In this document: positions 9,101 through 57,511 of the stretch, piece by piece | Layout: every line of letters begins with the position of its first letter | Position numbering within the stretch: position 1 is the stretch's first letter | NCBI GenBank assembly: GCA_031459875.1 | Contig: JAVKHQ010000015.1 | Coordinates: forward strand, 10,289 to 74,288 | Length of the DNA stretch: 64,000 nt | Source of the DNA: Candidatus Fervidifonticultor sextus | GTDB taxonomy: Bacteria; Sysuimicrobiota; Sysuimicrobiia; Sysuimicrobiales; Humicultoraceae | Direction of reading: 5' to 3' | Made by a program: the position numbers and the translations under genes | Notes under the pieces: generated by a model | What the model saw: the letters and a program-made list of their open reading frames with translations, nothing else | Databases searched by the model: none | What the model was told of the DNA's origin: nothing

Positions 9101-9536
9101 CAACAGGGCGCAGGCGCTGCGGCGTGAGCACGGCGCGACGGGGGAGTCGGCCCTCATTCTCCGGGGGCTGGCCGAGATCTCGCTGGCCAGGGGCGACCTC
9201 CTGGCCGCAGCCGAACTGGCGGAGCAGGCGCTGGGGCTGCTCACGGAGACCGACCCCATCTCCCAGGCCACGCACCGGGCGACGCTGGGACGGATCCGCG
9301 CCGCCCAGGGCCGCCGGGACGAGGCCGAGGCGTTGTTCCGGCGGAGCCTGGAGGTCCTTGAGCGTGCGGAATTTCGGATCGACCTGGCCCTGGCGCTGTT
9401 GCGGTACGGCGAGGCGCTGCAGTGGCTCGGCGAGGCAGACCGGGCGCGGGCGATCTTCGAACGGGCCCGGGGCCTCTTTGCCGAGATGGGGGCCGCCCGG
9501 TTCGTACGCGAGCTCGATGTGCGGCTGGCGCATTGA
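6174..9536 (+). CDS. Double zinc ribbon - class III adenylate/guanylate cyclase - AAA/STAND ATPase - TPR protein
   Basis: CPNC..CMRC..CPAC..CLQC; VLFADL, EKFIGDAVM, GEAVNLAARLQ; Walker A GPAGVGKS; LVVEDLHWA; GNPFFIEE; TPR C-terminus. Confidence 0.92.
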   Translation: MIRCPNCGSENPSGAQFCMRCGTALQRRCPACGAQNPPGAHFCLQCGRPLLAAPTAERRVVSVLFADLVASTPLAVRLDPEPVREILTDYFTAMREEVERYGGVVEKFIGDAVMAVFGLPGAHEDDPQRAIRAALAMRQRMGQLNARLRADLRVRIGISTGEVIADPAAVGAGEFMVTGEAVNLAARLQQHAAPDAVVIDERTCEASWGMVQCQPLETPRDGDFAGRPRWMVLGIADRRAAKRLRAPLLGREGEMQFLHALYRRAVESRRPHLVTVIGPAGVGKSRLAEEFLGARRDEADGPQVLRGRCLAYGEGLTYWPLAEMLKQECGIKDNDPADVVTSKLRDGVRRAGVTGEDEREMVAAALAPLLGVEIAVRADLGTERLQGLRRSVEGRATVLEPPGALAGAFGPDDALPRALRTFLAAKGSRRPLVLVVEDLHWAEQSLLGLLEHLAIRITDAPMLLLCLTRPELLERHPHWGSRVRNYTAVSLAPLSGELSRRLIANLLRNETVPGDVREAILARAEGNPFFIEEILRMMIDGGGLVRDEQGWRWASHPHEVRLPDTIHGILASRLDLLSALEKRVVQDASVMGRVFWMGPLIATSSLHAAEVTTALDRLQEREVVDERPTSSVFGEREFAFRHALIREVAYASLPKSERSLKHIRFAEWLESAAGDDEELLPVLAHHGEQAWRYKFENGEQDEALARKAINMFRRAGRRASRLRTLPEALRLFERALSVLHNAGLAGDVSLLLEVLTERSEVAKWMNVPDVVVADTETVMRLALAVGRQDLIARAWLNRAFAEYARNRLEPAEDAIGRALALFGNLQDRGGEAEALEVMGFIMEDLRGALTKAHTAYRKAFDLYRTMNDGQGMARTLARLGRVLLDHGNLAGSREALSEAIRLSRAHHERLSEANAVTGLAVLAHLTGDDAEAERRFQEAIALRHELGDLLAEAYTRHRLAMHYLRVGRLDDAEREFNRAQALRREHGATGESALILRGLAEISLARGDLLAAAELAEQALGLLTETDPISQATHRATLGRIRAAQGRRDEAEALFRRSLEVLERAEFRIDLALALLRYGEALQWLGEADRARAIFERARGLFAEMGAARFVRELDVRLAH

Positions 9537-9561
9537 AAGGCGGTCGGGCTGACAGGCGAGG

Positions 9562-9590
9562 TTGACAGGTCGCCGCAGCGGTGGTATAAA
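9562..9590 (+). promoter_or_regulatory. Sigma70-type promoter of amt-glnK
   Basis: TTGACA-17 bp-TATAAA with extended -10 TG. Confidence 0.8.
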
Positions 9591-9613
9591 AAGCGTCAAT
9601 TAGAATAGACGCG

Positions 9614-9694
9614 GGCCGGGAAGCCTCCGAGGATGGGGGCTTTTTCGTTGCAGGTCCGCCGGGGCCAGGACGCCTCCACAGAGGCGTCCTTTCG
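9614..9694 (+). promoter_or_regulatory. Tandem attenuators: GGC-N6-GCC hairpins overlapping intrinsic terminators (ANTAR-like)
   Basis: GGC-CGGGAA-GCC overlaps AAGCCTCC/GGGGGCTT-TTT; GGC-CAGGAC-GCC overlaps AGGACGCCTC/GAGGCGTCCT-TT. Confidence 0.6.
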
Positions 9695-9743
9695 CGTTTG
9701 CTGGAGTCCGGTCCGCAGTCTGGACGGCGGGAGGAGAGGGACG

Positions 9744-11027
9744 ATGCAGCATGCCGATGTGGCCTGGATGGTTACCGCCACCGCCCTGGTGCTGTTGATG
9801 ACACCGGCGCTGGGCTTCTTCTACGGCGGTCTGGTCCGGGCGAAGAACGCCTTGAACACCATAATGATGAGTTTCGCTTCCCTGGGGTTTGTCGGCATCG
9901 CGTGGGCCCTGGCCGGTTACTCCCTGGCATTCGGCCCTGGCTCGCCCTGGTTGGGGGGCCTCGCGCACGCGCTGCTGCGCGGCGTGGGTCTGGAGTCCCA
10001 GGGGACCATCCCGCACCTGCTGTTTGCGGCCTACCAGGCGACTTTCGCCATCATCACGGCTGCGCTGATCTCTGGCGCGATCGTCGAGCGGATGCAGTTC
10101 CGGGCCTATCTGGTCTTCCTCACCCTGTGGGGGGTGCTGGTCTACGCGCCGATCGCCCACTGGGTATGGGGCGGTGGGTGGCTCGGCAAACTCGGCGCGC
10201 TGGACTTCGCGGGCGGCACGGTGGTGCACATCAACGCCGGCGTGGCCGCCGTAATCGCGGCGCTCGTGCTCGGTCCGCGCAAGGACTACGCGCGCCAGGC
10301 CATCCTCCCGCACAGCGTCCCCTTCACGCTGCTGGGCGCCGGGCTGTTGTGGTTTGGGTGGTTCGGCTTCAACGCCGGTAGTGCGCTGGGTGCCACCCCC
10401 ATCGCCGCCCTGGCGTTCGTGAACACCATGCTCGCCCCCGCGGCCACGCTGATCGTCTGGACCATGCTGGACCTCGGCCGCACCGGGCGGGCCACGGCGG
10501 TCGGCGCCGCCACGGCCATCGTGGTGGGGCTGGTAGCCGTCACGCCGGCGGCGGGCTTCGTGAGCCCACTGGCCGCGATCCTCCTGGGCGCGCTCGCCGC
10601 CTTCCCCAGTTACTACGCGGTCCTGTGGAGGGCCCGGACCCGGCTGGACGACTCGCTGGACGTACTGGCCGCGCACGGCGTCGGGGGCACGGTCGGCGCG
10701 ATCCTCACCGGGGTCCTGGCGCAGAAGGCCTGGAACGGGGTGGCTGACGGACTGATCGCCGGCAACCCAGCGCAGGTCGCAATCCAGGCCCTCGCCGTAC
10801 TGGCCGCGGCCGCCTACAGCGCCGGGGGGACACTGGTGCTCCTCAAACTGGTCGGCGCGTTCCTGCCGCTGCGCGTGGCTGATCCCGCCGCGGAGGGACT
10901 TGGGTTGGACGTCAGCCAGCACGGCGAAGAAGCCTACTCCACCGGGGAGGGCGCTATCCTGGTGCTGACCGAGCCGGCGCCGCTTGGTCCCGAACCCACA
11001 CCTGAGCCCGCAGGAGGACCTGCATGA
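9744..11027 (+). CDS. amt: Ammonium transporter
   Basis: LVLLMTPALGFFYGG, YQATFAIITAALISGA, LDFAGGTVVHINAG, WFGWFGFNAGS, DDSLDV..AHGVGG. Confidence 0.97.
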   Translation: MQHADVAWMVTATALVLLMTPALGFFYGGLVRAKNALNTIMMSFASLGFVGIAWALAGYSLAFGPGSPWLGGLAHALLRGVGLESQGTIPHLLFAAYQATFAIITAALISGAIVERMQFRAYLVFLTLWGVLVYAPIAHWVWGGGWLGKLGALDFAGGTVVHINAGVAAVIAALVLGPRKDYARQAILPHSVPFTLLGAGLLWFGWFGFNAGSALGATPIAALAFVNTMLAPAATLIVWTMLDLGRTGRATAVGAATAIVVGLVAVTPAAGFVSPLAAILLGALAAFPSYYAVLWRARTRLDDSLDVLAAHGVGGTVGAILTGVLAQKAWNGVADGLIAGNPAQVAIQALAVLAAAAYSAGGTLVLLKLVGAFLPLRVADPAAEGLGLDVSQHGEEAYSTGEGAILVLTEPAPLGPEPTPEPAGGPA

Positions 11028-11374
11028 AACTCGTGGTGGCGATTGTCCGTCCAGAGAAACTCAATAACGTGCTCGAGGCGCTGTTCCGCACCGAGGTGCG
11101 CGGGCTGACGATCAGCCGGGTCCAGGGCCACGGCGGTGAGACCGAGCAGGTCCAGACCTATCGCGGCACCACGGTGAAGATGGAACTCTCAGAGAAGGTC
11201 CGCCTGGAAATCGGCGTGTCCGACCACTTCGTGGATCCCACGGTGCAGACCATCCTGGGGTCGGCCGGCACTGGCGAGGTCGGCGACGGGAAGATCTTCG
11301 TCCTGCCCGTGGAGAACGTCTACCGTATCCGCACAGGGGAGCGGGACGAGGCAGCCGTCACGCCGGTGGGCTAA
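11024..11374 (+). CDS. glnK: P-II family nitrogen regulator
   Basis: AIVRPEKL, YRG T-loop, TGEVGDGKIFVLPV..RIRTGE; overlaps the amt stop. Confidence 0.93.
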   Translation: MKLVVAIVRPEKLNNVLEALFRTEVRGLTISRVQGHGGETEQVQTYRGTTVKMELSEKVRLEIGVSDHFVDPTVQTILGSAGTGEVGDGKIFVLPVENVYRIRTGERDEAAVTPVG

Positions 11375-11420
11375 CGCGAAAGAGGGGACCCGGCGCGCTT
11401 CGGCGTAGTAGAGCCGGCGC

Positions 11421-12551
11421 GTGTACGACGTCATCGTCCTGGGTCTGGGCGGCATGGGCAGCGCCGCCGCCTACCATCTGGCCCGCCGCGGGAAGCGCGT
11501 GCTGGGGCTGGACCGTTTTCCGCCGGCGCACGACCGCGGGTCGTCCCACGGCCGTTCCCGCATCATCCGCGAGGCCTACTTCGAGCACCCGGCGTATGTG
11601 CCGCTGGTGCAGCATGCCTACCATCTCTGGGCGGACCTCGAGCGGGCCAGCGAAAGGCGGCTCCTCCTGACCACCGGCGGGATCATGATCGGGCCGCCAT
11701 CGGGCGCACTGGTCCGCGGGACGCTGGAGAGCGCCCGCCTCCACCGGCTTCAGCACGAGGTCCTGGACGCCCCCGAGGTCCGCCGGCGCTTCCCGGTGTT
11801 CGTCCCCTCCGACGACATGATCGGGGTCTACGAACCCCGGGCCGGCGTGCTCGACCCCGAGGCGTGTGTGCTGGCCCACCTGGAGCAGGCTGCCCGCGCC
11901 GGCGCCGACCTGCACCACGAGGAGCCGGTGCTGGCCTGGCAGGCAGCCGCAGATCGCGTCGAAGTCCGCACCCCCGGCGCCCGGTACGAAGCCGGCCGCC
12001 TGGTCGTCGCCGCCGGGCCCTGGGCGCCGACGGTGCTGGCCGACCTGGGCCTGCCGCTGGCCGTGGGGCGCCAGATCGTGGTCTGGTTCCGGCCGGCCTT
12101 CCTCCACGACGCCTTTGACCCCGCGCGGTGTCCCGTCTACATCTGGCAGGTGGACGGCGGCCTCTTCTACGGGTTTCCGCACCTGAACCGCGACGGCGTC
12201 AAGGTCGCCGAGCACTCGCCGGGCGATCCGACCACGGCCGACACCGTCACCCGCCGGGTCGCGCCCCAGGAAGTCCAGAGACTCCGGAGGACCTTCGTGG
12301 ACCGCTACATGCCGGGGGCCGGCGGCGCAGTCGTCGCCACCGGCGTGTGCCTGTACACGATGACCCCGGATACCCACTTCATCATCGATCTACACCCGCG
12401 GCACCCCCACGTGGTCGTTGCCTGCGGGTTTTCGGGCCACGGGTTCAAGTTCGCCCCGACCGTCGGCGAGATCGCGGCCGATCTGGCGGTGGACGGGAAG
12501 ACCCGACACGAGACGGCGCTGTTCGCCGTGGGCCGGTTCGTCCGGGCATAA
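11421..12551 (+). CDS. Monomeric sarcosine oxidase / N-methyltryptophan oxidase family
   Basis: GLGGMGSAA FAD motif, GSSHGRSRIIR, CLYTMTPD, GFSGHGFKFAP. Confidence 0.9.
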   Translation: MYDVIVLGLGGMGSAAAYHLARRGKRVLGLDRFPPAHDRGSSHGRSRIIREAYFEHPAYVPLVQHAYHLWADLERASERRLLLTTGGIMIGPPSGALVRGTLESARLHRLQHEVLDAPEVRRRFPVFVPSDDMIGVYEPRAGVLDPEACVLAHLEQAARAGADLHHEEPVLAWQAAADRVEVRTPGARYEAGRLVVAAGPWAPTVLADLGLPLAVGRQIVVWFRPAFLHDAFDPARCPVYIWQVDGGLFYGFPHLNRDGVKVAEHSPGDPTTADTVTRRVAPQEVQRLRRTFVDRYMPGAGGAVVATGVCLYTMTPDTHFIIDLHPRHPHVVVACGFSGHGFKFAPTVGEIAADLAVDGKTRHETALFAVGRFVRA

Positions 12552-12620
12552 CGTCTGCGGGCGCAGGCGGGTACGGCGGGCGCGAGCCGAGGCTTGCCGG
12601 GTTCGTGCCTCCGATGCTAC

Positions 12621-12738
12621 GATGACAAAAGTACGGGCGCGCCCGTGACAGCGCATGGAGAGTCCGGGCCGGTATGAGGCCCGGGAACGCGAGGGGCACC
12701 GCGGGCTCAAGACCCCGTCTCCGGCCAGGCGGGGTTTT
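12621..12738 (+). promoter_or_regulatory. T-box-like transcription attenuator (non-canonical) upstream of the aminotransferase-serS operon
   Basis: Stem III-like CCGGGCC/GGCCCGG; antiterminator GAG-[GGGCACC]-GCGGG...CCCGT-CTC overlapping terminator AAGACCCCGTCT/AGGCGGGGTTTT. Confidence 0.6.
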
Positions 12739-12780
12739 ATCTTTGAGCGCCGCGGGAACATCTTGTTCGGGAGGTGAACC

Positions 12781-13929
12781 GTGCGGCAATACCTGCTCAT
12801 CCCGGGTCCGACGCCGCTGCCCGACGAGGTCCTGGCGGCCTCGGCGCGGCAGATGCTGAACCATCGCGGCCCTGAATTCGGCCGGCTGCTGGCCGAGACG
12901 CTGGCGGCGCTCCGGCGTATCTTCCTGACCCGCCACGTCATCCTGCCGTTTGCCGCCTCGGGCACCGGCGGGCTGGAGGCGGCGGTGGTCAACCTCTGCT
13001 CGCCGGGCGATGAGGTCGTGGCGGTCTGCGGCGGTGTCTTTGGCGATCGGTTCGCGGCGATCGCCGAGGCCTACGGCCTTGCGGTGGTGCGGGTCACCGT
13101 GCCGTGGGGGCAGGCGGTCGATCCTGAGGCGGTGCGCGAGGCGCTGCGCAGGACCCCCCGGGCCCGGGCGGTGCTGGTCACGCAGAGCGAGACCTCGACC
13201 GGGGTGCGCCACGACGTGGCCGCCATCGCGTCGGTAGTGCGCGACTCTCCGGCGCTGATGGTGGTGGATGCCGTGAGTTCGCTGGGCGCTATCGAACTGC
13301 GCACCGACGAGTGGGGGCTGGACGTGGTGGTCACCGGCTCGCAGAAAGCGCTCATGGCGCCGCCGGGCCTGGCGCTCGTCAGCGTCTCGGACCGGGCGTG
13401 GGAGGCGGTCAGGGAAGCACGGTTGCCGCGGTTCTACTGGTCGTTTGAGCGGATGCGGACCGAGCTCGGCGACCCGGAGGCCTACACCCCCTTCACGCCG
13501 GCCATCAGCGTGGTCTATGCGCTGCATGCCGGCCTCCGTCTCGTCGAGGCGGAAGGGTTAGAGGCCCGGTGGGCCCGGCACCGGCGCGTCGCCCAGGCGG
13601 TGCGGGCCGGCGTGCGTGCGCTGGGCCTGCGGGTCGTGCCAAAGGAACAGGATGCCAGCGAGACGGTCACGGCGGTCTGGCTTCCCGACGGCACCGACGA
13701 CGGCGCGCTGTTGAAGCGGCTTCGGACCGAGCACGGTGTCGTCCTGGGCGGCGGGCAGGGGCCGATGCGCGGGAAGATCTTCCGATTCGGCCACCTGGGG
13801 TGGGTGCCGGACGCGGACGTCCTGGCCGGGCTGCGGGCGCTTGAGGCCGTGCTGGCCCAGATCGGCGGCCCGGTGGGCAGAGGGGCCGACGCGGCGGCCC
13901 TGGAGGTGCTCACCCGCGCGCCGGCGTGA
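12781..13929 (+). CDS. Class V PLP aminotransferase (alanine-glyoxylate/serine-pyruvate/phosphoserine type)
   Basis: LLIPGPTP, NHRGPEF, SGTGGLEAA, ETSTGV, VDAVSSLG, GSQKALMAPPG. Confidence 0.9.
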   Translation: MRQYLLIPGPTPLPDEVLAASARQMLNHRGPEFGRLLAETLAALRRIFLTRHVILPFAASGTGGLEAAVVNLCSPGDEVVAVCGGVFGDRFAAIAEAYGLAVVRVTVPWGQAVDPEAVREALRRTPRARAVLVTQSETSTGVRHDVAAIASVVRDSPALMVVDAVSSLGAIELRTDEWGLDVVVTGSQKALMAPPGLALVSVSDRAWEAVREARLPRFYWSFERMRTELGDPEAYTPFTPAISVVYALHAGLRLVEAEGLEARWARHRRVAQAVRAGVRALGLRVVPKEQDASETVTAVWLPDGTDDGALLKRLRTEHGVVLGGGQGPMRGKIFRFGHLGWVPDADVLAGLRALEAVLAQIGGPVGRGADAAALEVLTRAPA

Positions 13930-36985: not shown

Positions 36986-37070
36986 GCCCGCGATAAAGGC
37001 ACCCCGCCCGCGAGGGCGGTTCGCAAAGCCACGGGGCTGGGCGATCCAGCCAGCCGGGTTGCCGAACGGG
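36986..37070 (+). ncRNA. c-di-GMP-I (GEMM-I) riboswitch aptamer
   Basis: AAAGGC-P2 with GCGA (GNRA) tetraloop-CGCAAAGCCACGGG...CAGCCGGGTTGCCGAA; P1 CCCG/CGGG. Confidence 0.82.
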
Positions 37071-37134: not shown

Positions 37135-37626
37135 GTGGACCCGGGACGGCAGAGCATCCAGATACTGGTCGGCGTCTTCCTGACCGTCGTCCTGGCCGCG
37201 GGTCCCTCGTCCTCCGCTTCATTCGCCGTCGAACCCGGGAAACGAATCGGCCCTGTGACCATCGGGATGGCCGAGCACGAGGTCCTTGCCGCCGTCGGCG
37301 GAGGTATGCGACCGGCTCCGGGGCCGGCTCCCGACGTGCTCGAGATCCCGGCTCACGGGTTGACGGTGTGGTTCTCTACCGGGCGCGTGATCCGTATCCG
37401 TACGACCAACACGGCCCACAAGACGCCATCGGGCTACGGCCCCGGCGACGGAAACTGGGCCGGGGCGAGGCAGGCCTCGTGCAACGGTGGGGTGAGTGAG
37501 GCCAGTGCCGTCCACGTGACGGCGGCAGGGTTCGAGATCCGGTGCCCGTTCGCGGGGCTGGTCCTGGAGGTCTCAAGGGGTCGGATCGTTGGTCTGGTAG
37601 TGCTCCCCAGCGAAAGGCTGCGGTAG
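37135..37626 (+). CDS. Hypothetical exported protein
   Basis: Signal peptide then VEPGKRIGPVTIGM; first gene after the riboswitch. Confidence 0.65.
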   Translation: MDPGRQSIQILVGVFLTVVLAAGPSSSASFAVEPGKRIGPVTIGMAEHEVLAAVGGGMRPAPGPAPDVLEIPAHGLTVWFSTGRVIRIRTTNTAHKTPSGYGPGDGNWAGARQASCNGGVSEASAVHVTAAGFEIRCPFAGLVLEVSRGRIVGLVVLPSERLR

Positions 37627-37694
37627 CAGGGCGCGGCGCCGTCTACGACCGGTCTGCGGCGCCCTGGGATGCAGGTCTCGAGGAGGCGAGGACG

Positions 37695-38414
37695 ATGACG
37701 CGTGACGCACTGCTCTTCTTGCTGGTCATGACCCTCGGGCTGGCGATCCCGGTGATTGCCCAGCAACACCTGATGCCGCCGACCCAGATTCAGCCGGGGC
37801 AGGAGATCGCGGCCGTCCGCCTGGGGCAGTCGGCCGCCTCGGTCCTCAACCGCCTCGGGCCCCCCGCCGAGACGCGGGCGATGCCGGACGGGACCCTGTA
37901 CGCCTTTCCGCGCTACGGCATCAACGTGTACGTGACGGACGGCGTCGTTCGTGCGGTCTCCACCACGAACGGCCTCATGCGAACCGGAGAGGCGATCGCG
38001 GTCGGCGCCGCCGTCGGCGAGGTGCGCCGCGTCTTCGGGGCGCAGTTCGTGGATGCCGTGGTGGAAGGCCTGATGGGTATGGCCTACGATCAGCACGGCA
38101 TCGCCTTCGGCCTGGACGGCGCGGTCGTTTCGATCATCCTCGTCTATCCGCCGAAGGTCCGATCCGCCGCCCCGGCGGCGCCGGCGGCCTCCGACGCTCC
38201 TGCGGCCGTACTGGCGGCGGCCTCCCCGGTCCAGGTGGACCCGGGCCTCGTGGTCGTGCCCCGGGTGGACCAGCTCAAGCCCTTCTCCCCCGAGACGTAC
38301 TACATGTCGGTTCCCGGCTTCCTGCGCTACGTGGTTCGCCAGCAGACCGGCGCGTGGCTGACGCAGGCGGAGGCGGTGCGGATGCTCCAGGACCAGCGCC
38401 GGCTTCGGCTCTGA
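37695..38414 (+). CDS. Hypothetical exported protein, related to the upstream gene
   Basis: RBS AGGAGG; signal peptide; IQPGQEIAAVRLGQ; V..VSTTN. Confidence 0.72.
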   Translation: MTRDALLFLLVMTLGLAIPVIAQQHLMPPTQIQPGQEIAAVRLGQSAASVLNRLGPPAETRAMPDGTLYAFPRYGINVYVTDGVVRAVSTTNGLMRTGEAIAVGAAVGEVRRVFGAQFVDAVVEGLMGMAYDQHGIAFGLDGAVVSIILVYPPKVRSAAPAAPAASDAPAAVLAAASPVQVDPGLVVVPRVDQLKPFSPETYYMSVPGFLRYVVRQQTGAWLTQAEAVRMLQDQRRLRL

Positions 38415-38495: not shown

Positions 38496-38702
38496 TTAGC
38501 CGATCGGACGGACTCCAGTCGCCTGCGGGCCCTTCTGCCCCTGCGTCTGCGTGTACTCGACCTTCTGCCCCTCGACGAGGGACTTGTAGCCTTCGCCCTC
38601 GATGCCGCTGAAGTGCACGAACAGGTCCTTCGACCCGTCCTCCGGGGTGATGAAGCCATACCCCTTCTCGCTGCTGAACCACTTGACGGTTCCTGTTGCC
38701 AT
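38496..38702 (-). CDS. Cold-shock protein (CspA family)
   Basis: [28 protein letters not shown]. Confidence 0.96.
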
Positions 38703-38863
38703 GCTTGTTGCCACCTTTACCTGCAGGCTACCACAGACATCGAACTCTTCTGCGATGCCCGCGCATTATCTCACGGATCGACCGAAAACACAAGGGCAAC
38801 GCGCGTCCTCCCGGACTACGGGCCCGGTTCAACGGGCATACACCGTGGCGGGGTCGGGTAGCC

Positions 38864-39604
38864 ATGGTTCCTCTCTGGCGGTCAGCCCGCCGAAAAGGCA
38901 TCGAGCGCCGTGCCCTCCCACGGATCCCGCTGGCGGTCCCGGTTCGGTATGCGACGGATCAGGGTCAAACGGGTGTCGGCGTCCTGATCGACGTCCACGA
39001 GCAGGGCGCCGGCCTGCTGGTCCCCACCATCTTGCCCGACGTGTTCCACGTCTGGGTCCAGTTTCTGTGGTTCGATGATCAGATGGGCGTCCAGGGACGG
39101 GTCGCCTACGTGCGGGAGACCCCGGACGGCTTCCGCGTCGGCCTGCAGTTACAGCATGTCGGTGGACGGAGCGTCCGGTTCATCACCGACTACCTGATTC
39201 CCTTCGGGCTGCGCAAGTTCCGGTACGACCGCCGGCATCCGTTGGCGTTCCTGGAAGCGCTCTCTGCGAAGCGGCGGGAGGCGACGGTGCGGCACCGCCG
39301 GCGCTACCTCCCGGTCCTCGTGGAGCAGGGAGGGATCAAGACCTGGGCCGTGACCGAGGATCGGAACGAGCAGGGCGCGGTGCTCCTCCTGCCGCAGGCG
39401 CCAGAGAGGGGTCTGCCCCTGACGGTCTCGACGTGGGGCAGCTTCTTCACCCGGTCGGGCCGGGCGGAGCGCCTGGAACCCGTCGATCTCCCCCCGGTCC
39501 GCCTCTACCGCGTCGTGGTGCGCTTCGACGAGGGGTCGGGAGAACACGCCACTCGCCCGCCGGCTGAGGCCCGGCCAGGGGCTACTTCGGATACCACTTT
39601 CTAA
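38864..39604 (+). CDS. Tandem PilZ-like domain protein
   Basis: ERRALPR (RxxxR) and DVHEQG (variant DxSxxG); second degenerate copy RHRRRYLPV...EDRNEQG. Confidence 0.7.
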   Translation: MVPLWRSARRKGIERRALPRIPLAVPVRYATDQGQTGVGVLIDVHEQGAGLLVPTILPDVFHVWVQFLWFDDQMGVQGRVAYVRETPDGFRVGLQLQHVGGRSVRFITDYLIPFGLRKFRYDRRHPLAFLEALSAKRREATVRHRRRYLPVLVEQGGIKTWAVTEDRNEQGAVLLLPQAPERGLPLTVSTWGSFFTRSGRAERLEPVDLPPVRLYRVVVRFDEGSGEHATRPPAEARPGATSDTTF

Positions 39605-48207: not shown

Positions 48208-49470
48208 TCATGGGCATCCTGTATCATGGGCCCGCGCCTGGCGGGCGGCCCGGCGCGCCTGGCGCAGCGGCTCGGGCGTGCGGGAGCCCGCGGTGACGGC
48301 CAGGACGACGGCGACCGCGCTCTGGGGATCGGTCCGCCAGGCCGCGTGGACGGCCAGGGGGCGCGCCCCGCGTTGAGTCCGGAGCCAGTAGCCCACGAGT
48401 TCGTCCCCGACCTTCAGCGGACTGGTGGCACCGGGCGCATCGGCCGGCCAGGGTCCGTCGGCCAGGAGCGGCCTGTGGGTCACGCCGACAGTCGGCAGTG
48501 ACAGCCGGGCTCCGAGGTGCAGCGCCAGCCCGGCGCGCCGGGGGTGATCCCGGCCGGTGGCGTTGACGATCAGGACTTCTGGCACCGCGCGCAGGCGGCG
48601 CACCGCAGCCTCCAGGAGCGGTCCCTCGCGGAGGGCCAGCAGCCCGGGCTCGTAGGCCGCGGCCGTCTGCCCTCGGACCACCGCCACATCCACGAGTCGG
48701 CCGCCGACCAGCAGCGCCGCGGCCGCCCACGCGGAATCGCCGGGTGCGCCTGCGCCTTCCTTCCCCCGCGGGAAGCACACGAAGCACCCTGCCACCGCTG
48801 GCAGGAGGCCGTCTGTAGGACGCCAGGGTTCGGGTGAGATGGCCGACAGTCTGGCTTGCTCCGCCATGAGGTCCTCTGGCGTCGTGGGCCAGGGCGCTGT
48901 GGAGGCCGTCCCGCTTGTCACCGCCGGGGTTTTCCTCCCTCCGGACCCCCTTCGGTCCAGCCAGGTCCGCGCGGCCTCAAAGACCCGGTCGCGGTTCGCC
49001 CTGGTGAGCTCGTAGAGCGTGGTGCCGGGACGTTGCTTGAAGGCGTCGGACCACGGATGAGGGGCCACGGTGATCGTGGCGATCAGCAGGGCCGGGCTGG
49101 CAGCGACCTCGTCCATCACCGCGCGGAAGGCCTCGCTGGCGAGTTCCATCTTGCCGATCTCGTCCACCAGGAGCACCCGGCGGCCCCTCAGGCCCTGGCG
49201 GATGGTCGGCAGGCCGAGCCGTTCGAGCGCCGCGAGATCGACGCCGTAGCGTCCTACGCGGTGGGATGCGGTCTTCGCCCAGTCCACGTGGGCAAAGACC
49301 GCCGCCCGCCCGTCCAGGGTGACCAGTCGGAACCCCACGCGCTCACCGGATTCCCGGATCTCCTCGGTGTAGAATCCGGCGGCCCTGCGCCCCAGGGCGT
49401 TCGCCAGTCTCCGGGCGAGCGTCGTCTTCCCGACCCCGGGCCGGCCGGCGATCAGCAGGATGTCTGCCAT
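48208..49470 (-). CDS. Fusion of NTPase (THEP1/NTPase_1 family) and endonuclease V-like domain
   Basis: N-terminal GRPGVGKTT, GFYTEEIR..RVGF, VGRYGVD, VDEIGKMEL; C-terminal YEPGLLALREGP, HPRRAGLA.HLG, RTPEPLRQA. Confidence 0.85.
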   Translation of the reverse strand: MADILLIAGRPGVGKTTLARRLANALGRRAAGFYTEEIRESGERVGFRLVTLDGRAAVFAHVDWAKTASHRVGRYGVDLAALERLGLPTIRQGLRGRRVLLVDEIGKMELASEAFRAVMDEVAASPALLIATITVAPHPWSDAFKQRPGTTLYELTRANRDRVFEAARTWLDRRGSGGRKTPAVTSGTASTAPWPTTPEDLMAEQARLSAISPEPWRPTDGLLPAVAGCFVCFPRGKEGAGAPGDSAWAAAALLVGGRLVDVAVVRGQTAAAYEPGLLALREGPLLEAAVRRLRAVPEVLIVNATGRDHPRRAGLALHLGARLSLPTVGVTHRPLLADGPWPADAPGATSPLKVGDELVGYWLRTQRGARPLAVHAAWRTDPQSAVAVVLAVTAGSRTPEPLRQARRAARQARAHDTGCP

Positions 49471-51993: not shown

Positions 51994-54227
51994 CTATCGG
52001 GCTGGAGGCCGCCCCAGCGCGTACGCCACGATCTCATCCGTCGACATCGCACGGCCTTCTTCGATGGCCGCCGCGAGGGCCTGGCGGTCCAGTTTCCCGC
52101 CGACCTGCCAGGGCCCTTCTGTAGCGTCGAGGATCGCAGCCAGATCCACGCCGCCGGACTTCTGTAACGCGGCGGCCCCGCCGGCCAGCCGTGCGGCGCG
52201 CTCGGGCTCGCCCTCCAGGAGCACGAGGCCGGAGAAATCCAGGAGCAGCAGCGCAATCCCCGAGACGTCGCGCGCCTCGGCGAACAGCCCCATGGCTTCG
52301 TCGAAGGCGGCGCGCGCGGCCGGATAGTCGCCCGTCTTGCTGGCCACCAGGCCCAGCGAGTGGAGGGCCCATCCCAGACTGAACCGGTCGTCCTGGCTGC
52401 GGAAGATGGGAATGCTGATCGCGAGGTGACGAGACGACGCCGGATAATCCGCGGCCGTGTAGGTCACGCTGGCCATGGCCCAGTGGACCTTGGCGATGCC
52501 CGCCCGCTCGTAGATCGCCAGGCTCTCCTCGAGGAGCGACCGGCCGCGCTCGACTTCGGTCTGCGGAACGATGAAGACGAAGGAGAGATCATACAGGGCC
52601 GCCGCGACGTTTGGGGGATTCCCGAGTTGACGCCGCAGCGCCAGGAGCTCCTCGTAGAACCGCCGGGCGGCTTCCATGTCCCCCTGCCAGTAGGCAATCC
52701 CGCCGGCGGCCTCCAGGGCCTTCGCATAGGCCTGCGGGACTGACGCGGCACCGGGCAGCGCCAGGAGCCTGCCCAGCCGCTCGCGGGCTTCGTGCAGGTG
52801 TCCCCGCATCTGCCAGAAGCGCCAGAGGCTGGCTCCCAGCCGGAGGCCGGCCTCCGAGTCGGCCTGGTCAATCGCCCAGGCGATGGCGGCGCGCAGGGTA
52901 TGCTGCCGCGCCGGCAGGTCCCGCGGGCCGCCGCTCAGGAAACTGAGGCGGCGCTGGAGCCGCGCCAGCATCGCCTGAGGGGGGAAAAGTTTGACCCGCG
53001 CCGCGGCGAGTTCGATGGCTAGCGGCAGTCCCTCCAGCCGCCAGGCGATCTCCGCCACCGCCGGTGCATTCTCGTTGGTGATGGTGAAGTCGGGCTTCAC
53101 GGCCAGGGCCCGCTGGATGAACAGCGTGACGGCTTCGTACTGCGAGAGGGACTCCAGGTCCGGGGGGGGCCTGGGATCGGGACGCCGCAGCGGCGGGACC
53201 GGGAGCTCCTGTTCCCCGTACAGGTGCAGGGGGATTCGCGTAGTGACGATGACCTTCAGCCGGGTGCTGGTCTTGAGCAGGCCGCCGACGACGGGCGTCG
53301 CGGCGATGACCTGCTCGAAGTTGTCGAGGACCAGGAGGAGCCTCTTGCCGTTCAGGTATTCCTGCAGGCGGTCGAGGATGGGCCGACTGCCCGACTCGCG
53401 CACCTCGAGGCTCTGGGCGATAATGGACGCGACGAGGCCGGGGTCTGAGATCGGCGCGAGCGGGACGAAGTAGACGCCGTCTGGGAACTGGTCAACCACC
53501 TCGGCGGCCAGTTGCATGGCCAGCCGGGTCTTTCCGGTGCCCCCGGGGCCTGTGAGCGTCAGCAGCCGCGTCCGGTCCAGCAGCCGTCGGGCCTGGGCGA
53601 GTTCGTGCTCTCGGCCGACGAAACTGGTGAGCTGGATCGGCAGGTTGTTGGGGATCGCTTCCAACGTCCGCAGCGGCGGAAAGGCATCGGGCAGCTCCGG
53701 TGCCAGGAGCTGGAACAGGTGCTCGGGTTTGGAGAGATCCTTGAGGCGGTGCACCCCCAGGTCGCGGAGGCCGAGGCCCGCCGGGAGGGCGTGCTCGATG
53801 ATTTCTTTCGTCGCCTGGGAGACCAGGATCTGTCCGCCGTGGCCGGCGGCGCAGATGCGGGCCGCGCGGTGGACGTCCAGCCCGACGTAGTCGTGACCGA
53901 CAGGGACGGCGTCCCCCGTGTGGAGACCCATGCGGGCGCGGAAGGGCAGCCCCCCGTCCAGGGGAAGCCTTCGAGGGCCCGCTGTGCCTCCGCGGCGGCC
54001 ACGGCGGCGCGGACTGCTCCCGTGAACGCCACAAAGAAACTGTCGCCCTCGGTGTTGACCTCGCAGCCGTCCTGAGCCCTGATGGCCTCCCGGATCAGCC
54101 GGCGGTGCTCTTCCAGCAGGTCGGGGTACCGTGTGCCGAGGGTCTGCAGCAGGCGCGTGGAGCCCTCGATGTCGGTAAAGAGGAAGGTGACGGTCCCGCT
54201 GGGAAACTCTGGGCCCACCATCGTCAT
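51994..54227 (-). pseudogene. Cyclase-like - NB-ARC/STAND ATPase - TPR protein, frameshifted and internally deleted
   Basis: N-terminal PSGTVTFLFTDIEGST/TEGDSFF in one frame, RMGLHTG..GPGGTGKT..LVLDNFEQ..LPLAIELAAAR in another; shift at the C6 run 53950-53955; apparent deletion at TLRAAIAW|AIDQ. Confidence 0.8.
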
Positions 54228-54294
54228 TCCACCACCGCGCGGTAATCCCCCTTCGGATGGTGTGACGGCAACAGTGTAGCAGGGTCGAGAGGGG

Positions 54295-55362
54295 ATGGCA
54301 CGACCAGAGGGCAACAGGCGTCCGGGCTTCCCGCCCCGAACACAGTGGCTGGCCGTTGGCCTGCCGGGTGCGACAGTGGAGCGCAGTCTCAACCAGCCTG
54401 CCCGTGGCGACCCATCCACCCCTCCGCGATCTGAGATTGCCTTCCTTCTCCTCGACGGCCTGCGCAGCCCGGGGGCTCCCGGTGGCGGCGTGACCGTGCT
54501 CTGCGCCCTGGGACTCGACCGGGACGGCCGGGCACATCCCCTGGCCTGGCGCGCTGTGCCGGAGGAACACGACCGGGAGTGGCTGGCCGTGCTCCGCGAC
54601 CTGAGGGCAGGAGGAGTCGGCAGGCATTTGCTCCTCGTGGGCTGCGACGGCCACCCCGCACTGCTCCGGGCGATTCCGGAGGTGTATCCCGGGATCCCGA
54701 TCCAGATCAGCGTGGCGCACCGGCTGCTGGCGCTCTCGCGGATGGTGGACCGTCAGTGGCGGGCCGCATGTCTGGCGGAAGCCCGGGCGATCTTTTCCGC
54801 GCCGGACCTGGCGGCGGCCGTCGCCAGATTCCGGCAGTGGCGGGCGCGCTGGGTCGTGCAGGCCCACCGGGCCGTGGCCAGCCTGGAGTCCGACCTGGCG
54901 GCGTGTCTGACATTCTACCGGTTCTCCCCGCTGCTGTGGCCGAAGATCCGCACGGTGAATCTCGTCGAGCGCGCGTTCCGGGAGGTCCGGCGCACGGCGC
55001 GCCTTTCGGAGACAGACCGGGCAGTGGTCCAGCCGCAGACGGCTTCTCAGGAGCCGGGGCCACCGGAACCGGCCCTGCTGGAATCGGTCCCGCCGCAGCC
55101 GGCTCCGTCGCAGCCTGTCCAGGCGGAGCCAGCGGGCGCCGAGCCGGTCCTGCCCCGGATCGAGCCCGGCGGTCCTGCGCCCTTTGAGGTCGCCGTGCTC
55201 CCACCACCTCCTGCGCCGGCATTTGCCTTCGATGCCGGACTTGCCCGGCGCTCCGCCCGGGGCCCGCGGCGGGGAGGTGGGCGGGCGTGGCTGCCGGCGG
55301 CTGCCGCCCTGGCTGTGCTTGCAGGGTTGGCCGCGGGCTTGGCGCTGGCGTGGGTTCGATGA
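54295..55362 (+). CDS. IS256/Mutator-type DDE domain protein with Pro-rich linker and C-terminal TM helix
   Basis: LLLDG, ALGLDRDGR, W..VL.DL..GG, GCDGHPAL..AI..VYP, QISVAH, LTFYRF..W.KIRTVNLVER.FREVRR. Confidence 0.75.
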   Translation: MARPEGNRRPGFPPRTQWLAVGLPGATVERSLNQPARGDPSTPPRSEIAFLLLDGLRSPGAPGGGVTVLCALGLDRDGRAHPLAWRAVPEEHDREWLAVLRDLRAGGVGRHLLLVGCDGHPALLRAIPEVYPGIPIQISVAHRLLALSRMVDRQWRAACLAEARAIFSAPDLAAAVARFRQWRARWVVQAHRAVASLESDLAACLTFYRFSPLLWPKIRTVNLVERAFREVRRTARLSETDRAVVQPQTASQEPGPPEPALLESVPPQPAPSQPVQAEPAGAEPVLPRIEPGGPAPFEVAVLPPPPAPAFAFDAGLARRSARGPRRGGGRAWLPAAAALAVLAGLAAGLALAWVR

Positions 55363-55427
55363 CCCCCGTCCCGGCGCGGTCGGGCAGGCCGGCCGCGTCC
55401 GTTCGATAGTCAGCGAGGAGGCACAGG

Positions 55428-56816
55428 ATGGCAACCGACCGTGTGCACCGCTACATCGACGATCACCGAGGGGAATCCCTCGAGATCCTCAAGACCCTGG
55501 TGCGGCAGCCGAGCATCAGTGCGCAGGATAAGGGCGTCAAGGAGTGCGCCGCGCTGCTGGCGGGGATCATGCGCGACCTCGGGGTCGGCGCCGAGGTCCT
55601 CGCCACGCCCACGCAGCCGGTCGTCTATGGCGAGCTCCGCACAGATCCCCGAGCGTTTACCCTGCTGGTCTACGGCCACTACGACGTGCAGCCGCCCGAG
55701 CCGTTGGACCTGTGGAGCAGCCCGCCGTTTGAGCCCACGGTGCGCGACGGCCGGCTCTACGGCCGCGGGACCGGGGACAACAAGGGGCAACTGCTCACCC
55801 ACCTGCTGGCCGCCCACGCCTGGACGCAGGTAGCCGGCGGCCCGCCGATCAACCTGAAGTTCGTCTTCGAGGGTGAGGAGGAGTCGGGCTCCCAGCACCT
55901 GGCGTCCTTCGTCCGGGAGCACCGGGCGAGGCTGGGCGCGGACCTCGTCTACATCTCCGACGGCGGCCTGCACCCGTCCGGCGCGCCGGTCATCTCGCTG
56001 GGCAACCGGGGCGTCCTTCAGATCGCCCTGGTCGCCCAGGGCGCCCGGTGGGACAACCACTCGGGGAACATGGGCGGCGTGGTCCCCAACCCCGTCTGGA
56101 TGCTGGTCCACCTGCTCTCGACGATGGTGGACCCGTCAGGCCGCGTGCTGGTCGAGGGGTTCTACGACCGCGTGCGGCCCGTCGGTCCCACCGAGGAGCG
56201 GCTGCTGGCGGCGCTGGACTTCGAGCCGGAGGCGTTCGCCGCGACGATGGGCCTGGAGCGGCTCGCCGTCGACGGCCCGACGTACTGGCGGCGGATCATG
56301 CTGGAGCCCTACATCAACATCCAGGGAGTGGCCGGCGGATACGTGGGCCCCGGGTCCAAGACGATCATCCCCTCGACCGCCGAGTGCCGAATCGACATCC
56401 GTCTGGTCGTGGACCAGAGGACGGAGGAGATCTTCCAGAAGGTCAGGGCCCACGTCGAGAAGGTCGATCCCCGGGTGCAGGTGGTGGACCGCGGCCTCGG
56501 CCGGATGGAACCCAGCCGCACGCCGCCCGACCACCCGGCGGTCGCGGTGGTCGCCCGGGCTGTCGCAGCCATCCGCGGGGTCGAGCCGGTCATCATCCCA
56601 AGCAGCGGCGGCAGCCTGCCCAACGCCGTCTGGCCGGATGTCCTCGGCGTCCCGCACCTCTGTGTCCCGTACGCCAACGCCGACGAGAACAACCATGCCC
56701 CCAACGAGAACCTCAGCCTGGAGCGGTTCTACGATGGGATCCACGTGAGCGCCCAGGTGTTCCAGGTGCTGGCTGCAGCCGATGCCTCAGGCGAGGTACC
56801 GCGACGGGCGGACTGA
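55428..56816 (+). CDS. M20 family metallopeptidase/deacylase
   Basis: YGHYDVQP, GRGTGDNKGQ, EGEEESGS, HSG..GG, NHAPNE. Confidence 0.92.
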   Translation: MATDRVHRYIDDHRGESLEILKTLVRQPSISAQDKGVKECAALLAGIMRDLGVGAEVLATPTQPVVYGELRTDPRAFTLLVYGHYDVQPPEPLDLWSSPPFEPTVRDGRLYGRGTGDNKGQLLTHLLAAHAWTQVAGGPPINLKFVFEGEEESGSQHLASFVREHRARLGADLVYISDGGLHPSGAPVISLGNRGVLQIALVAQGARWDNHSGNMGGVVPNPVWMLVHLLSTMVDPSGRVLVEGFYDRVRPVGPTEERLLAALDFEPEAFAATMGLERLAVDGPTYWRRIMLEPYINIQGVAGGYVGPGSKTIIPSTAECRIDIRLVVDQRTEEIFQKVRAHVEKVDPRVQVVDRGLGRMEPSRTPPDHPAVAVVARAVAAIRGVEPVIIPSSGGSLPNAVWPDVLGVPHLCVPYANADENNHAPNENLSLERFYDGIHVSAQVFQVLAAADASGEVPRRAD

Positions 56817-56848: not shown

Positions 56849-57511
56849 ATGTGGCTTCTGCGTCGCCGCCGGGGTGAACGCCGCAGCCTGCCCAGGCTCC
56901 AGGTCGCCGTACCGGTCCGCTACGCGACCGAGGAGGGGCAGGTCGGCATCGGCGTGCTCGTGGACGCGCACCACCACGGCGCCGGGCTGCTGGTGCCGCG
57001 GGTCCGGTTCGACGCCGAACGTGTCTGGCTGCAGCTGCTCTGGTTCGGCGACCGCGTGGGGATGGCGGGCCGGGTCGCCTACGTCCGCGAGAGCGCCTAC
57101 GGGCTGAGGCTGGGGCTGGCCCTGGATCCGCTGCACCCGGACACCGCGGGACTGCTGTCCGAGTTCGTCCTCCCATCTGCCCGCCCCGCCTCCCCCTCCC
57201 GGGGGAACGGCCCCGTCCGGCTTCCAGGGCTGCTGGTACGCTGGAAGCCGACAGCCCCGCCGGACCGCTACCTCCTGCCGGTCCTGGTCCAGCAGGGCCC
57301 CGTGGAGACCTGGGCCATCACCCAGGCCGAGACGGCCGGCGGCGCGGTCCTGGTGCTCCAGGGCCTGCCCGTGGCCGCACCCGTCAGGCTCTCGGTGTGG
57401 GGGAGCCCCGAGGTCCGCTGGGGAGAGGTCATCCGGGCCGAGATCCTGAAGCAGTCGCCCTTCGTGATTTCGCGCATCGAGGTCCGCTACGCCGTAGGCC
57501 CCGCCGCCTGA
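56849..57511 (+). CDS. Tandem PilZ-like domain protein, paralog of 38864..39604
   Basis: ERRSLPR..VPVRYAT..GQ.G.GVL.D.H..GAGLLVP, WLQLLWF, GRVAYVRE, LPVLVQQG. Confidence 0.7.
   Translation: MWLLRRRRGERRSLPRLQVAVPVRYATEEGQVGIGVLVDAHHHGAGLLVPRVRFDAERVWLQLLWFGDRVGMAGRVAYVRESAYGLRLGLALDPLHPDTAGLLSEFVLPSARPASPSRGNGPVRLPGLLVRWKPTAPPDRYLLPVLVQQGPVETWAITQAETAGGAVLVLQGLPVAAPVRLSVWGSPEVRWGEVIRAEILKQSPFVISRIEVRYAVGPAA

Follow-up and report, generated by a model that had tools for sequence, protein, structure and literature searches.

That hosts have recruited DDE transposases (so called after the Asp-Asp-Glu triad of their active site) for functions of their own is well documented for eukaryotes but, to our knowledge, only rarely for bacteria. 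The eukaryotic domesticated Mutator-like transposases FHY3/FAR1 and MUSTANG keep the DNA-binding N-terminus and act as transcription factors, catalysis being mostly lost. In prokaryotes, the same superfamily includes the IS256 (Mutator-like) transposases, such as ISCth4 TnpA (PDB entries 6xg8, 6xgw, and 6xgx), in which an RNase H-like domain carries a four-helix insertion. In the passages of the ISCth4 report that deal with its architecture, the triad is D175, D241, and E348, a CxxH motif (C262/H265) is described as having an important part in the catalysis of transposases that contain a helical insertion domain, and residues 1 to 165 form the dimerization (DD), N-terminal DNA-binding (NDB), and helix-turn-helix (HTH) domains, the first and last of which hold the main dimer interfaces (PMC7780238). 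By term search, the available text of a review of prokaryotic exaptation mentions neither IS256 nor DDE (PMC8987985), and our literature search, which covered few subscription journals, found no description of a domesticated membrane-anchored IS256 family in prokaryotes. Here, we describe a candidate for such a family, represented by a 355-residue maximal open reading frame (ORF) with an ATG start (54295..55362, + strand, the same open frame as in an earlier sequence-only reading) in a 64,000-nucleotide stretch of “Candidatus Fervidifonticultor sextus” (contig JAVKHQ010000015.1 of assembly GCA_031459875.1, positions 10,289 to 74,288; hereafter the window, to which all positions refer unless a contig is named). 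Our favored reading, with a probability of about 0.6, is that of an exapted, tail-anchored, and probably still catalytic IS256 DDE core facing the cytoplasm. Taken separately, the first part, that a domesticated IS256 core has become an ordinary host gene, inherited vertically and present in a single copy, is very likely.

The DDE core was located at residues 47 to 237 (54433..55005, +; residue numbers follow the 355-residue ORF) by Pfam, NCBIfam, AlphaFold2, and Foldseek. The Pfam profile Transposase_mut (PF00872) matched residues 66 to 237 over its positions 181 to 351 of 379 (E = 2.2e-26, 93.1 bits, cut-off 21), and the NCBIfam IS256 equivalog NF033543 matched residues 49 to 236 over positions 122 to 315 of 338 (E = 2e-33), with a score of 115.8 bits, under the 150-bit equivalog cut-off. 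By this partial coverage, the protein is an IS256-type transposase reduced to its catalytic part, the N-terminal third being absent. The only other Pfam match of the protein was a weak one to MULE, with no HTH and no RodZ_C. In an alignment with 25 canonical IS256-type proteins of ca. 400 residues, D54 (54454-54456, +), D118 (54646-54648, +), and E225 (54967-54969, +) fell in the D-D-E columns of 24 of them, S139 (54709-54711, +) and H142 (54718-54720, +) in the CxxH columns, and R232 (54988-54990, +) in the column of the Arg found seven residues past the Glu (E+7). The best match in both sequence and fold was ISCth4 TnpA, which shares the E+7 Arg, the xxH of the C/DxxH motif, and the spacing of the triad (D-64-D-107-E in the window protein, with S/H at +21/+24); by phmmer, D118, S139/H142, and E225 paired exactly with the D, C..H, and E of 6xg8. 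An AlphaFold2 model, built from a 46-sequence family alignment (mean predicted local distance difference test score [pLDDT], 73.3), showed an RNase H-like core with a helical insertion domain, with block means of 90 to 97 at residues 71 to 210, and the top five PDB matches of this model in Foldseek were all ISCth4 chains (E = 6.7e-12 to 4.9e-10). The ESM Atlas returned only short transposase clusters, with scores of 0.81 to 0.82, below a meaningful level.

The differences from real IS256 transposases are as clear as the resemblance. Rows of the main family have 25 to 32 residues before the first D, versus 149 to 194 in the 25 canonical proteins, so that the window protein is without the ca. 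150 to 190 N-terminal residues (about 165 in ISCth4) that make up the DD, NDB, and HTH domains, and the normal C-terminus of 39 to 75 residues is missing as well. Unlike IS256 elements, the gene also has SxxH in place of CxxH, a score below the equivalog cut-off, an acidic linker followed by a transmembrane (TM) tail, conserved synteny, a single copy per genome, and no terminal inverted repeats, none of the 23 imperfect inverted-repeat pairs in 53600-56000 bracketing it. Thus, four observations of the sequence-only reading, namely an IS256/Mutator core with D54, D118, and E225, the change from CxxH to SxxH, the missing N-terminal DNA-binding region, and the lack of terminal inverted repeats, all stood up to comparison with canonical proteins, profiles, and folds. 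The contrast with FHY3/FAR1 and MUSTANG is of another kind: these share with our gene the superfamily and the condition of an immobile, vertically inherited host gene, while the window protein is bacterial, has lost the DNA-binding part, has kept the triad, and has gained a membrane anchor.

A protein search over 5.8 billion clustered proteins retrieved 81 clusters with 40 to 100% identity. The window protein and 71 of these clusters were taken as a family set of 72 full-length sequences; the 10 left out were fragments (<300 residues or beginning after the first D). Nearly all clusters share one layout, consisting of ca. 25 to 30 residues, the motif AFLLLDGLRRP, the DDE core, a variable acidic/Pro-rich stretch, a juxtamembrane motif, and a terminal TM helix. 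D54, D118, E225, H142, and R232 were invariant in 72/72 sequences, with pairwise identities down to about 40%. When 1.84 billion representatives were searched exhaustively with the profile, the matches fell into three tiers by score. The top tier comprised about 16 representatives (340 to 467 bits), most of them spanning the whole profile, including the tail; a middle tier had 180 to 290 bits; and the lowest (<=197 bits) consisted of ordinary IS256 transposases of ca. 400 residues, matched at their residues ca. 160 to 370. Public records label the family proteins “transposase” or “hypothetical protein.”

The genome that holds the window (G000; 3.05 Mb, 96% complete) has one copy of the gene. 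Four further places in it match PF00872; they are fragments or a frameshifted copy, and none was matched by the window protein at E <= 0.001. Both genomic expectations of the sequence-only reading were therefore borne out: orthologues with the same architecture of DDE core, linker, and TM helix exist (71 clusters besides the window), and no near-identical full-length IS256 copy was found in the genome. IS256-type remnants in G000 lie at C67:44204-45084 (-), split over two frames, at C65:98421-98681, and at C62:6-236. We surveyed 94 genomes of the phylum, from seven families, counting matches of at least 349 bits as the main family. It was present in 15 of the 34 genomes of family f1, always with one match each (13/32 without the unpublished genomes G013 and G022), and in none of the 60 genomes of the six other families. 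Within f1, it occurred in 7 of the 12 genera, namely g1 (3/6 genomes), g2 (1/1), g3 (4/4), g5 (1/1), g9 (3/3), g11 (2/2), and g12 (1/1), the values for g9 and g11 becoming 2/2 and 1/1 without G013 and G022.

The C-terminal third of the protein begins with a Pro/Glu/Ala-rich linker at residues 238 to 312 (55006..55230, +), predicted to be disordered, with pLDDT of <50 over most of its length. It is followed by a juxtamembrane segment at residues 313 to 331 (55231..55287, +), delimited from the AlphaFold2 model and the family alignment, which consists of a short helix (314 to 321) and an Arg-rich patch (318 to 330, read directly from the sequence), and by a TM helix at residues 332 to 354 (55288..55356, +), after which one residue and the stop codon remain. 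In the model, disorder extends over residues ca. 245 to 313, and the terminal helix is confident (pLDDT, 80 to 96), with a 19-residue hydropathy of 2.2 and one to three residues beyond it. All the parts of the tail proposed in the sequence-only reading (stalk, Arg patch, and hydrophobic C-terminal helix) are thus present, the extent of the linker having been corrected to about 238 to 312. Across the 72 family sequences, the linker measures 61 to 189 residues and is net negative in 71, and a TM segment with a GxxxG motif (G344 and G348 in the window protein, both invariant) was found in 72/72, with 0 to 5 residues past the TM window and a median hydropathy of 2.21. The juxtamembrane segment of the window protein follows the family motif DLSxDxxFxxWLxxxRR in degenerate form; at least 90% of the sequences have D313. 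A single C-terminal TM helix with a basic cytoplasmic side and no N-terminal signal peptide makes it likely, on these predictions, that the protein is tail anchored. When the tail module was searched for in other proteins (query, residues 325 to 379 of P0069), only three family members were recovered among 21 candidates, by a method that needs common 5-residue words and may miss distant sharing.

In a quick maximum likelihood tree of the core (62 rows, 37 N-truncated and 25 canonical), the N-truncated proteins were split from the 25 canonical transposases with a Shimodaira-Hasegawa-like approximate likelihood ratio test (SH-aLRT) value of 100, because of which we consider that the truncated proteins would share one origin. 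The genomic neighborhoods (annotation of 107 proteins plus 8 more) fell into two main contexts, in agreement with the conserved synteny anticipated for a host gene. In context A (G016, G017, G007, G021, and G006; four genera), the order is rplS-lepB-rnhB-yraN, the gene on the opposite strand, MOSC or HAD, in some cases RidA, and then comM-dprA-topA. Context B was found in G005 (M20 <- gene <- MerR/TPR <- Ku, LigD divergent), in G009 (MFS, NmrA, ferritin, 4HBT, gene <- MerR/TPR <- Ku, LigD, DUF72), and in G000 and G002 (DUF72 ... STAND | gene -> M20 -> PilZ-like -> PFOR -> DHODH -> ferritin -> MFS); these variants overlap, since G000 and G009 share DUF72...[gene]...ferritin-MFS and G005 and G009 share the MerR/TPR-Ku-LigD side. 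Five context A rows, including the short-contig locus of G023, clustered in the tree (SH-aLRT, 88), with G006 outside, and the context B rows were in another group (SH-aLRT, 85). The upstream genes encoding MerR-HTH/TPR, Ku, and LigD, the latter two being nonhomologous end-joining genes, lie at L041 (G005; 8558-11269) and L044 (G009; 9121-13603), that is, in two genera.

Selection was measured as omega, the ratio of nonsynonymous to synonymous substitution rates, against the 87% identical orthologue of G002. The core gave values of 0.19 to 0.24 (NG86) and 0.16 (YN00) at a synonymous divergence (dS) of 0.12 to 0.18, similar to those of the neighboring genes for M20 peptidase (0.17), PFOR (0.14), DHODH (0.10), and SGL (0.18), the PilZ-like neighbor having a value of 0.56. 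In 41 further pairs, core omega was 0.12 to 0.36, with dS of about 0.7 to 1.5, near saturation. The expectation of purifying selection was thus confirmed for the core (0.16 to 0.24) and failed for the linker, which evolves neutrally in sequence (omega, 1.04 to 1.06). The lengths of the window and G002 proteins are five residues apart, and no frameshift separates them. Taking the omega of about 1 together with the retention of frame and charge, the linker sequence appears free to drift, while the frame, the charge, and what follows are not.

These data bear on whether the gene could be a still mobile or recently immobilized insertion sequence (IS) relic, kept open by high G+C content. Its annotation as a transposase in the source, the neutral linker, and the occurrence of long chance ORFs in high-GC DNA (a 1,146-residue antisense ORF overlaps the gene) would fit such a relic. 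It is, however, already contradicted by the single copy, the lack of terminal repeats, synteny across genera, a core omega of about 0.2, TM/GxxxG in 72/72 sequences, and the riboswitch and terminator conserved upstream (see below), and we regard it as highly improbable. Single copy, synteny, core omega, and orthologues of the same architecture uphold the central proposal of the sequence-only reading, an exapted gene and not a decaying IS, and for the core nothing was found that refutes it.

The proteins of the middle score tier bear on whether the exapted core is still an enzyme. They are N-truncated too and form one clade (SH-aLRT, 88), and at least one residue of the D-D-E triad was missing in 13/13 of those examined. 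The TM tail is kept in P0083, P0097, P0089, and L048 (the last two also have the juxtamembrane motif), and no obvious TM helix was seen in P0084, P0086, L047, and P0095. In five others (P0085, P0087, P0092, L046 [G015:C268 2401-3717], and L049 [G012:C1 7359-8732]), the DDE-like domain is followed by an internal TM helix, a Pro-rich spacer, and the RodZ C-terminal domain (PF13464, E = 1e-16 to 1e-18 for the first three; read from the sequence for L046 and L049). These fusions are RodZ-like proteins with a transposase-derived domain in place of the cytoplasmic HTH. The C-terminal domain of RodZ is extracytoplasmic, and since the DDE-like domain of the fusions is N-terminal to the TM helix and RodZ_C is C-terminal to it, the DDE-derived domain would be on the N-terminal, cytoplasmic side of the membrane. 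The window protein resembles RodZ only in having an N-terminal domain and then a TM helix; unlike RodZ, and unlike these paralogues with their full RodZ layout of Pro-rich spacer and RodZ_C, it has no HTH, no RodZ_C, and nothing after the TM helix. We considered whether the RodZ_C paralogues could be replacements of RodZ itself and rejected this, since G000 has a canonical HTH-TM-RodZ_C RodZ (on G000:C1), so that the fusions are additions.

The loss of the triad in all 13 sister proteins indicates that it decays quickly once nothing requires it, and this gives weight to its invariance in the main family. Because the three acidic residues, H142, and R232 are all invariant there, we consider, from the residues involved, that catalysis has been retained somewhat more probably than lost. 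The rival explanation is a noncatalytic membrane scaffold or regulator, in which the RNase H-like fold would serve, on the inner side of the membrane, as a protein or nucleic-acid binding module and the acidic residues would act in metal-dependent binding or in stability. The sister clade, which lost D, D, or E and kept the fold with the TM tail or with TM and RodZ_C, is what such a module would look like, and the family-wide SxxH and the loss of every DNA-recognition domain also fit it. Invariance of the five residues in 72/72 versus triad loss in 13/13 noncatalytic relatives is, on the other hand, the contrast that selection for catalysis predicts, so that we judge a scaffold to be a real but distinctly less probable explanation.

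The regulation of the gene provided another line of evidence. A 12-mer search revealed a long conserved block common to five upstream regions, which corresponds to an aptamer of the Rfam c-di-GMP-I clan (the RF03167 “GGC” variant with 59 to 64.8 bits, gathering score 59; RF01051 with 60.8 bits, gathering score 35). Most of these aptamers score best with the GGC variant, the ligand of which was not confirmed by the literature searched. The aptamer lies directly upstream, on the strand of the gene, in 5 of the 10 genome loci (G016, G015, G017, G005, and G009, representing contexts A and B and a third one) and in 12 of the 18 main-family metagenome loci (contigs fetched with the family alignment), giving 17/28 loci other than the window, with 12 distinct aptamer sequences, some loci being near-duplicates. 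In all 17, the aptamer lies 108 to 118 nucleotides from the first-D motif. A run of at least four T's was found 13 to 22 nucleotides past the aptamer in 15/17, preceded by a segment complementary to the aptamer 3' strand. The leader of G005 and its twin L065 had no T-run, and there control may instead be translational. In the minimum-free-energy fold of one unliganded leader, the terminator is built from the aptamer 3' strand, and as this strand forms the 5' arm of the predicted terminator, the riboswitch would be an ON switch. In this respect, the family is similar to genes controlled by c-di-GMP-I (GEMM-I) riboswitches, with RF03167 or RF01051 plus a terminator in 17/28 orthologous loci, although the window copy is without such a leader. 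The same literature search gave no published case of a transposase-derived gene linked to this riboswitch class.

A riboswitch also bears on the idea that the protein is a host- or element-encoded inhibitor of IS256-type transposition, which would poison full-length transposase or sequester it at the membrane. Truncated inhibitor forms of transposases are known, e.g., the Tn5 inhibitor protein, and the window protein is indeed a truncated transposase in a clade that has IS256-type elements or fragments as possible targets (in G000 the four other PF00872 places, in relatives several canonical-type matches). For an inhibitor, however, one would not expect control by a cyclic-dinucleotide riboswitch, nor would an invariant triad be needed; the canonical IS256 copies of G000 are too distant for a match at E <= 0.001, and the N-terminal DD and HTH domains, where the described passages on ISCth4 put the main dimer interfaces (PMC7780238), are absent here. 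We consequently hold an inhibitor to be quite unlikely.

G000 has 11 matches to c-di-GMP-I riboswitches (L131 to L141), and among the genes that follow them are those for a sigma-70-type factor, a PAS/HisKA kinase, two HD-GYP-type (HD_5) proteins, a periplasmic binding protein, a TPR-MshEN-T2SSE ATPase, and a GspH-like pseudopilin. Within the window, one c-di-GMP-I riboswitch (RF01051, 59.9 bits) lies at 36988-37066 (+), ahead of a 163-residue ORF with an N-terminal hydrophobic segment (37135-37626) and a 290-residue ORF (37542-38414), both without a Pfam match, and the next one is a PilZ-domain ORF (38696-39604, E = 5.5e-8).

Together, these elements suggest how the exapted, membrane-anchored core could work. 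Loss of the N-terminal dimerization, subterminal-DNA-binding, and HTH domains would have abolished the recognition of transposon ends, and replacement of the normal C-terminus by an acidic Pro-rich linker, a basic juxtamembrane segment, and a TM helix would leave the DDE domain in the cytoplasm, flexibly tethered to its anchor in the cytoplasmic membrane. The GxxxG of the TM helix may provide the dimerization formerly supplied by the lost N-terminal domain. The core would bind metal and cut or join nucleic acid, the likeliest substrate being DNA near the membrane, with no specificity for transposon ends. In the orthologues that carry the riboswitch, binding of a cyclic dinucleotide should turn the gene on, and the window copy has lost this leader. 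A narrower proposal is a cyclic-dinucleotide-induced, membrane-tethered DDE enzyme that cuts or joins DNA at the membrane's inner face, possibly processing DNA that enters via the type IV pilus or competence machinery. The competence idea comes from the fact that the same riboswitch class precedes the T2SSE/MshEN ATPase and the pseudopilin in G000 and that the gene lies between yraN and comM-dprA in five genomes. We consider this proposal speculative and rather unlikely; the positions beside comM-dprA and Ku-LigD and the coregulation with pilus genes are leads only.

Several observations weigh against the favored reading. The gene was not found in three of the six genomes of the genus of the window itself (G001, G003, and G004, with completeness of 94, 88, and 98%) and is therefore dispensable. 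No constant operon partner was seen among the annotated neighbors. With all DNA-binding N-terminal domains gone, the choice of a substrate is hard to explain, and SxxH replaces CxxH in at least 90% of the family, the C being present in 24/25 canonical proteins. The last 25 to 45 residues are under weak constraint (omega, 0.6 to 0.8, small n). As for the regulation, the aptamer was absent from 11/28 other loci (8 searched at E <= 1; L037, L042, and L043 at the gathering threshold only), cmscan gave no c-di-GMP-clan match in the leader of the window (53800-54700) even at E <= 10, and in the 12-mer search the leaders of the window and G002 shared nothing beyond their mutual similarity. Lastly, since the triad-less paralogues keep the TM tail or RodZ_C, the function for which the core was first exapted may have done without catalysis.

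If the favored reading is correct, the family would display a full path of exaptation, from one truncation, through the gain of a membrane anchor and a riboswitch, to a split into triad-keeping and triad-losing (RodZ_C-fused) lineages, with the same core becoming, in the sister clade, a noncatalytic cytoplasmic module of RodZ-like envelope proteins. If active, the main family would be a new kind of membrane-localized nucleic-acid enzyme tied to cyclic-dinucleotide signaling and a compact catalytic core that has shed the end-recognition domains. Should the proposal of cyclic-dinucleotide-induced DNA processing be true, this would make it the first host function in prokaryotes to derive from an IS256/Mutator core. 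The regulatory link and the series of paralogues make the family testable. In practical terms, the annotation as “transposase” makes IS counts too high and conceals a host gene.

The coding sequence in the window most likely begins at a GTG codon (V28; 54376..55362, +, 328 residues) and not at the ATG at 54295, because the family has 25 to 32 residues before the first D and its profile alignment starts at 54382 (profile position 3). From the GTG, 26 residues precede the first D, versus 53 from the ATG, and P0002, an 85% identical NCBI orthologue, begins at the codon equivalent to GTG 54376. The database gene call (P0001, 290 residues) starts at V66 and wrongly removes D54. A 270-nucleotide contig from one metatranscriptome library of a single study, to which the likely source sample also belongs, spans 54634-54903 with three mismatches, a weak hint of transcription given that DNA carry-over is possible and that contigs do not show the start site. 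This contig and the riboswitch of 17/28 other loci, a host type of regulation, are indirect signs of a host function. The roles in DNA uptake, defense, or segregation put forward in the sequence-only reading are guesses, and PADLOC, which models antiphage defense systems, matched no family for the window protein, P0069, P0085, or P0089.

The leader (54226..54375), in which cmscan of 53800-54700 detected no riboswitch, is a divergent intergenic region common with the upstream gene on the minus strand (51994..54225, -), which encodes a STAND NTPase (NB-ARC/AAA) with TPR and a weak cyclase-like N-terminus according to Pfam and the neighbor annotation; the spacing between both genes is ca. 70 to 150 bp, depending on the start codon chosen. 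The 1,146-residue antisense ORF (51994..55434, -) was rejected as a real gene across the DDE gene, since its Pfam domains end at the STAND/TPR gene and the remainder is a high-GC artifact. Downstream, 65 bp past the stop codon, is the gene of an M20 peptidase identified by Pfam (55428..56816, +), and this side is the synteny common to the genus g1 loci G000, G002, and G005. Between the M20 peptidase and PFOR lies a 220-residue PilZ-like gene (56849-57508, +), with 21.4 bits, just under the cut-off of 22.5, and its G005 orthologue scores 49 bits; these scores point to a possible c-di-GMP receptor two genes downstream of the DDE gene in genus g1. Farther upstream in the window, a single 420-residue ORF (48211-49470, -) combines NTPase_1 (E = 2e-42) and endonuclease V (E = 4e-34) in an unusual fusion.

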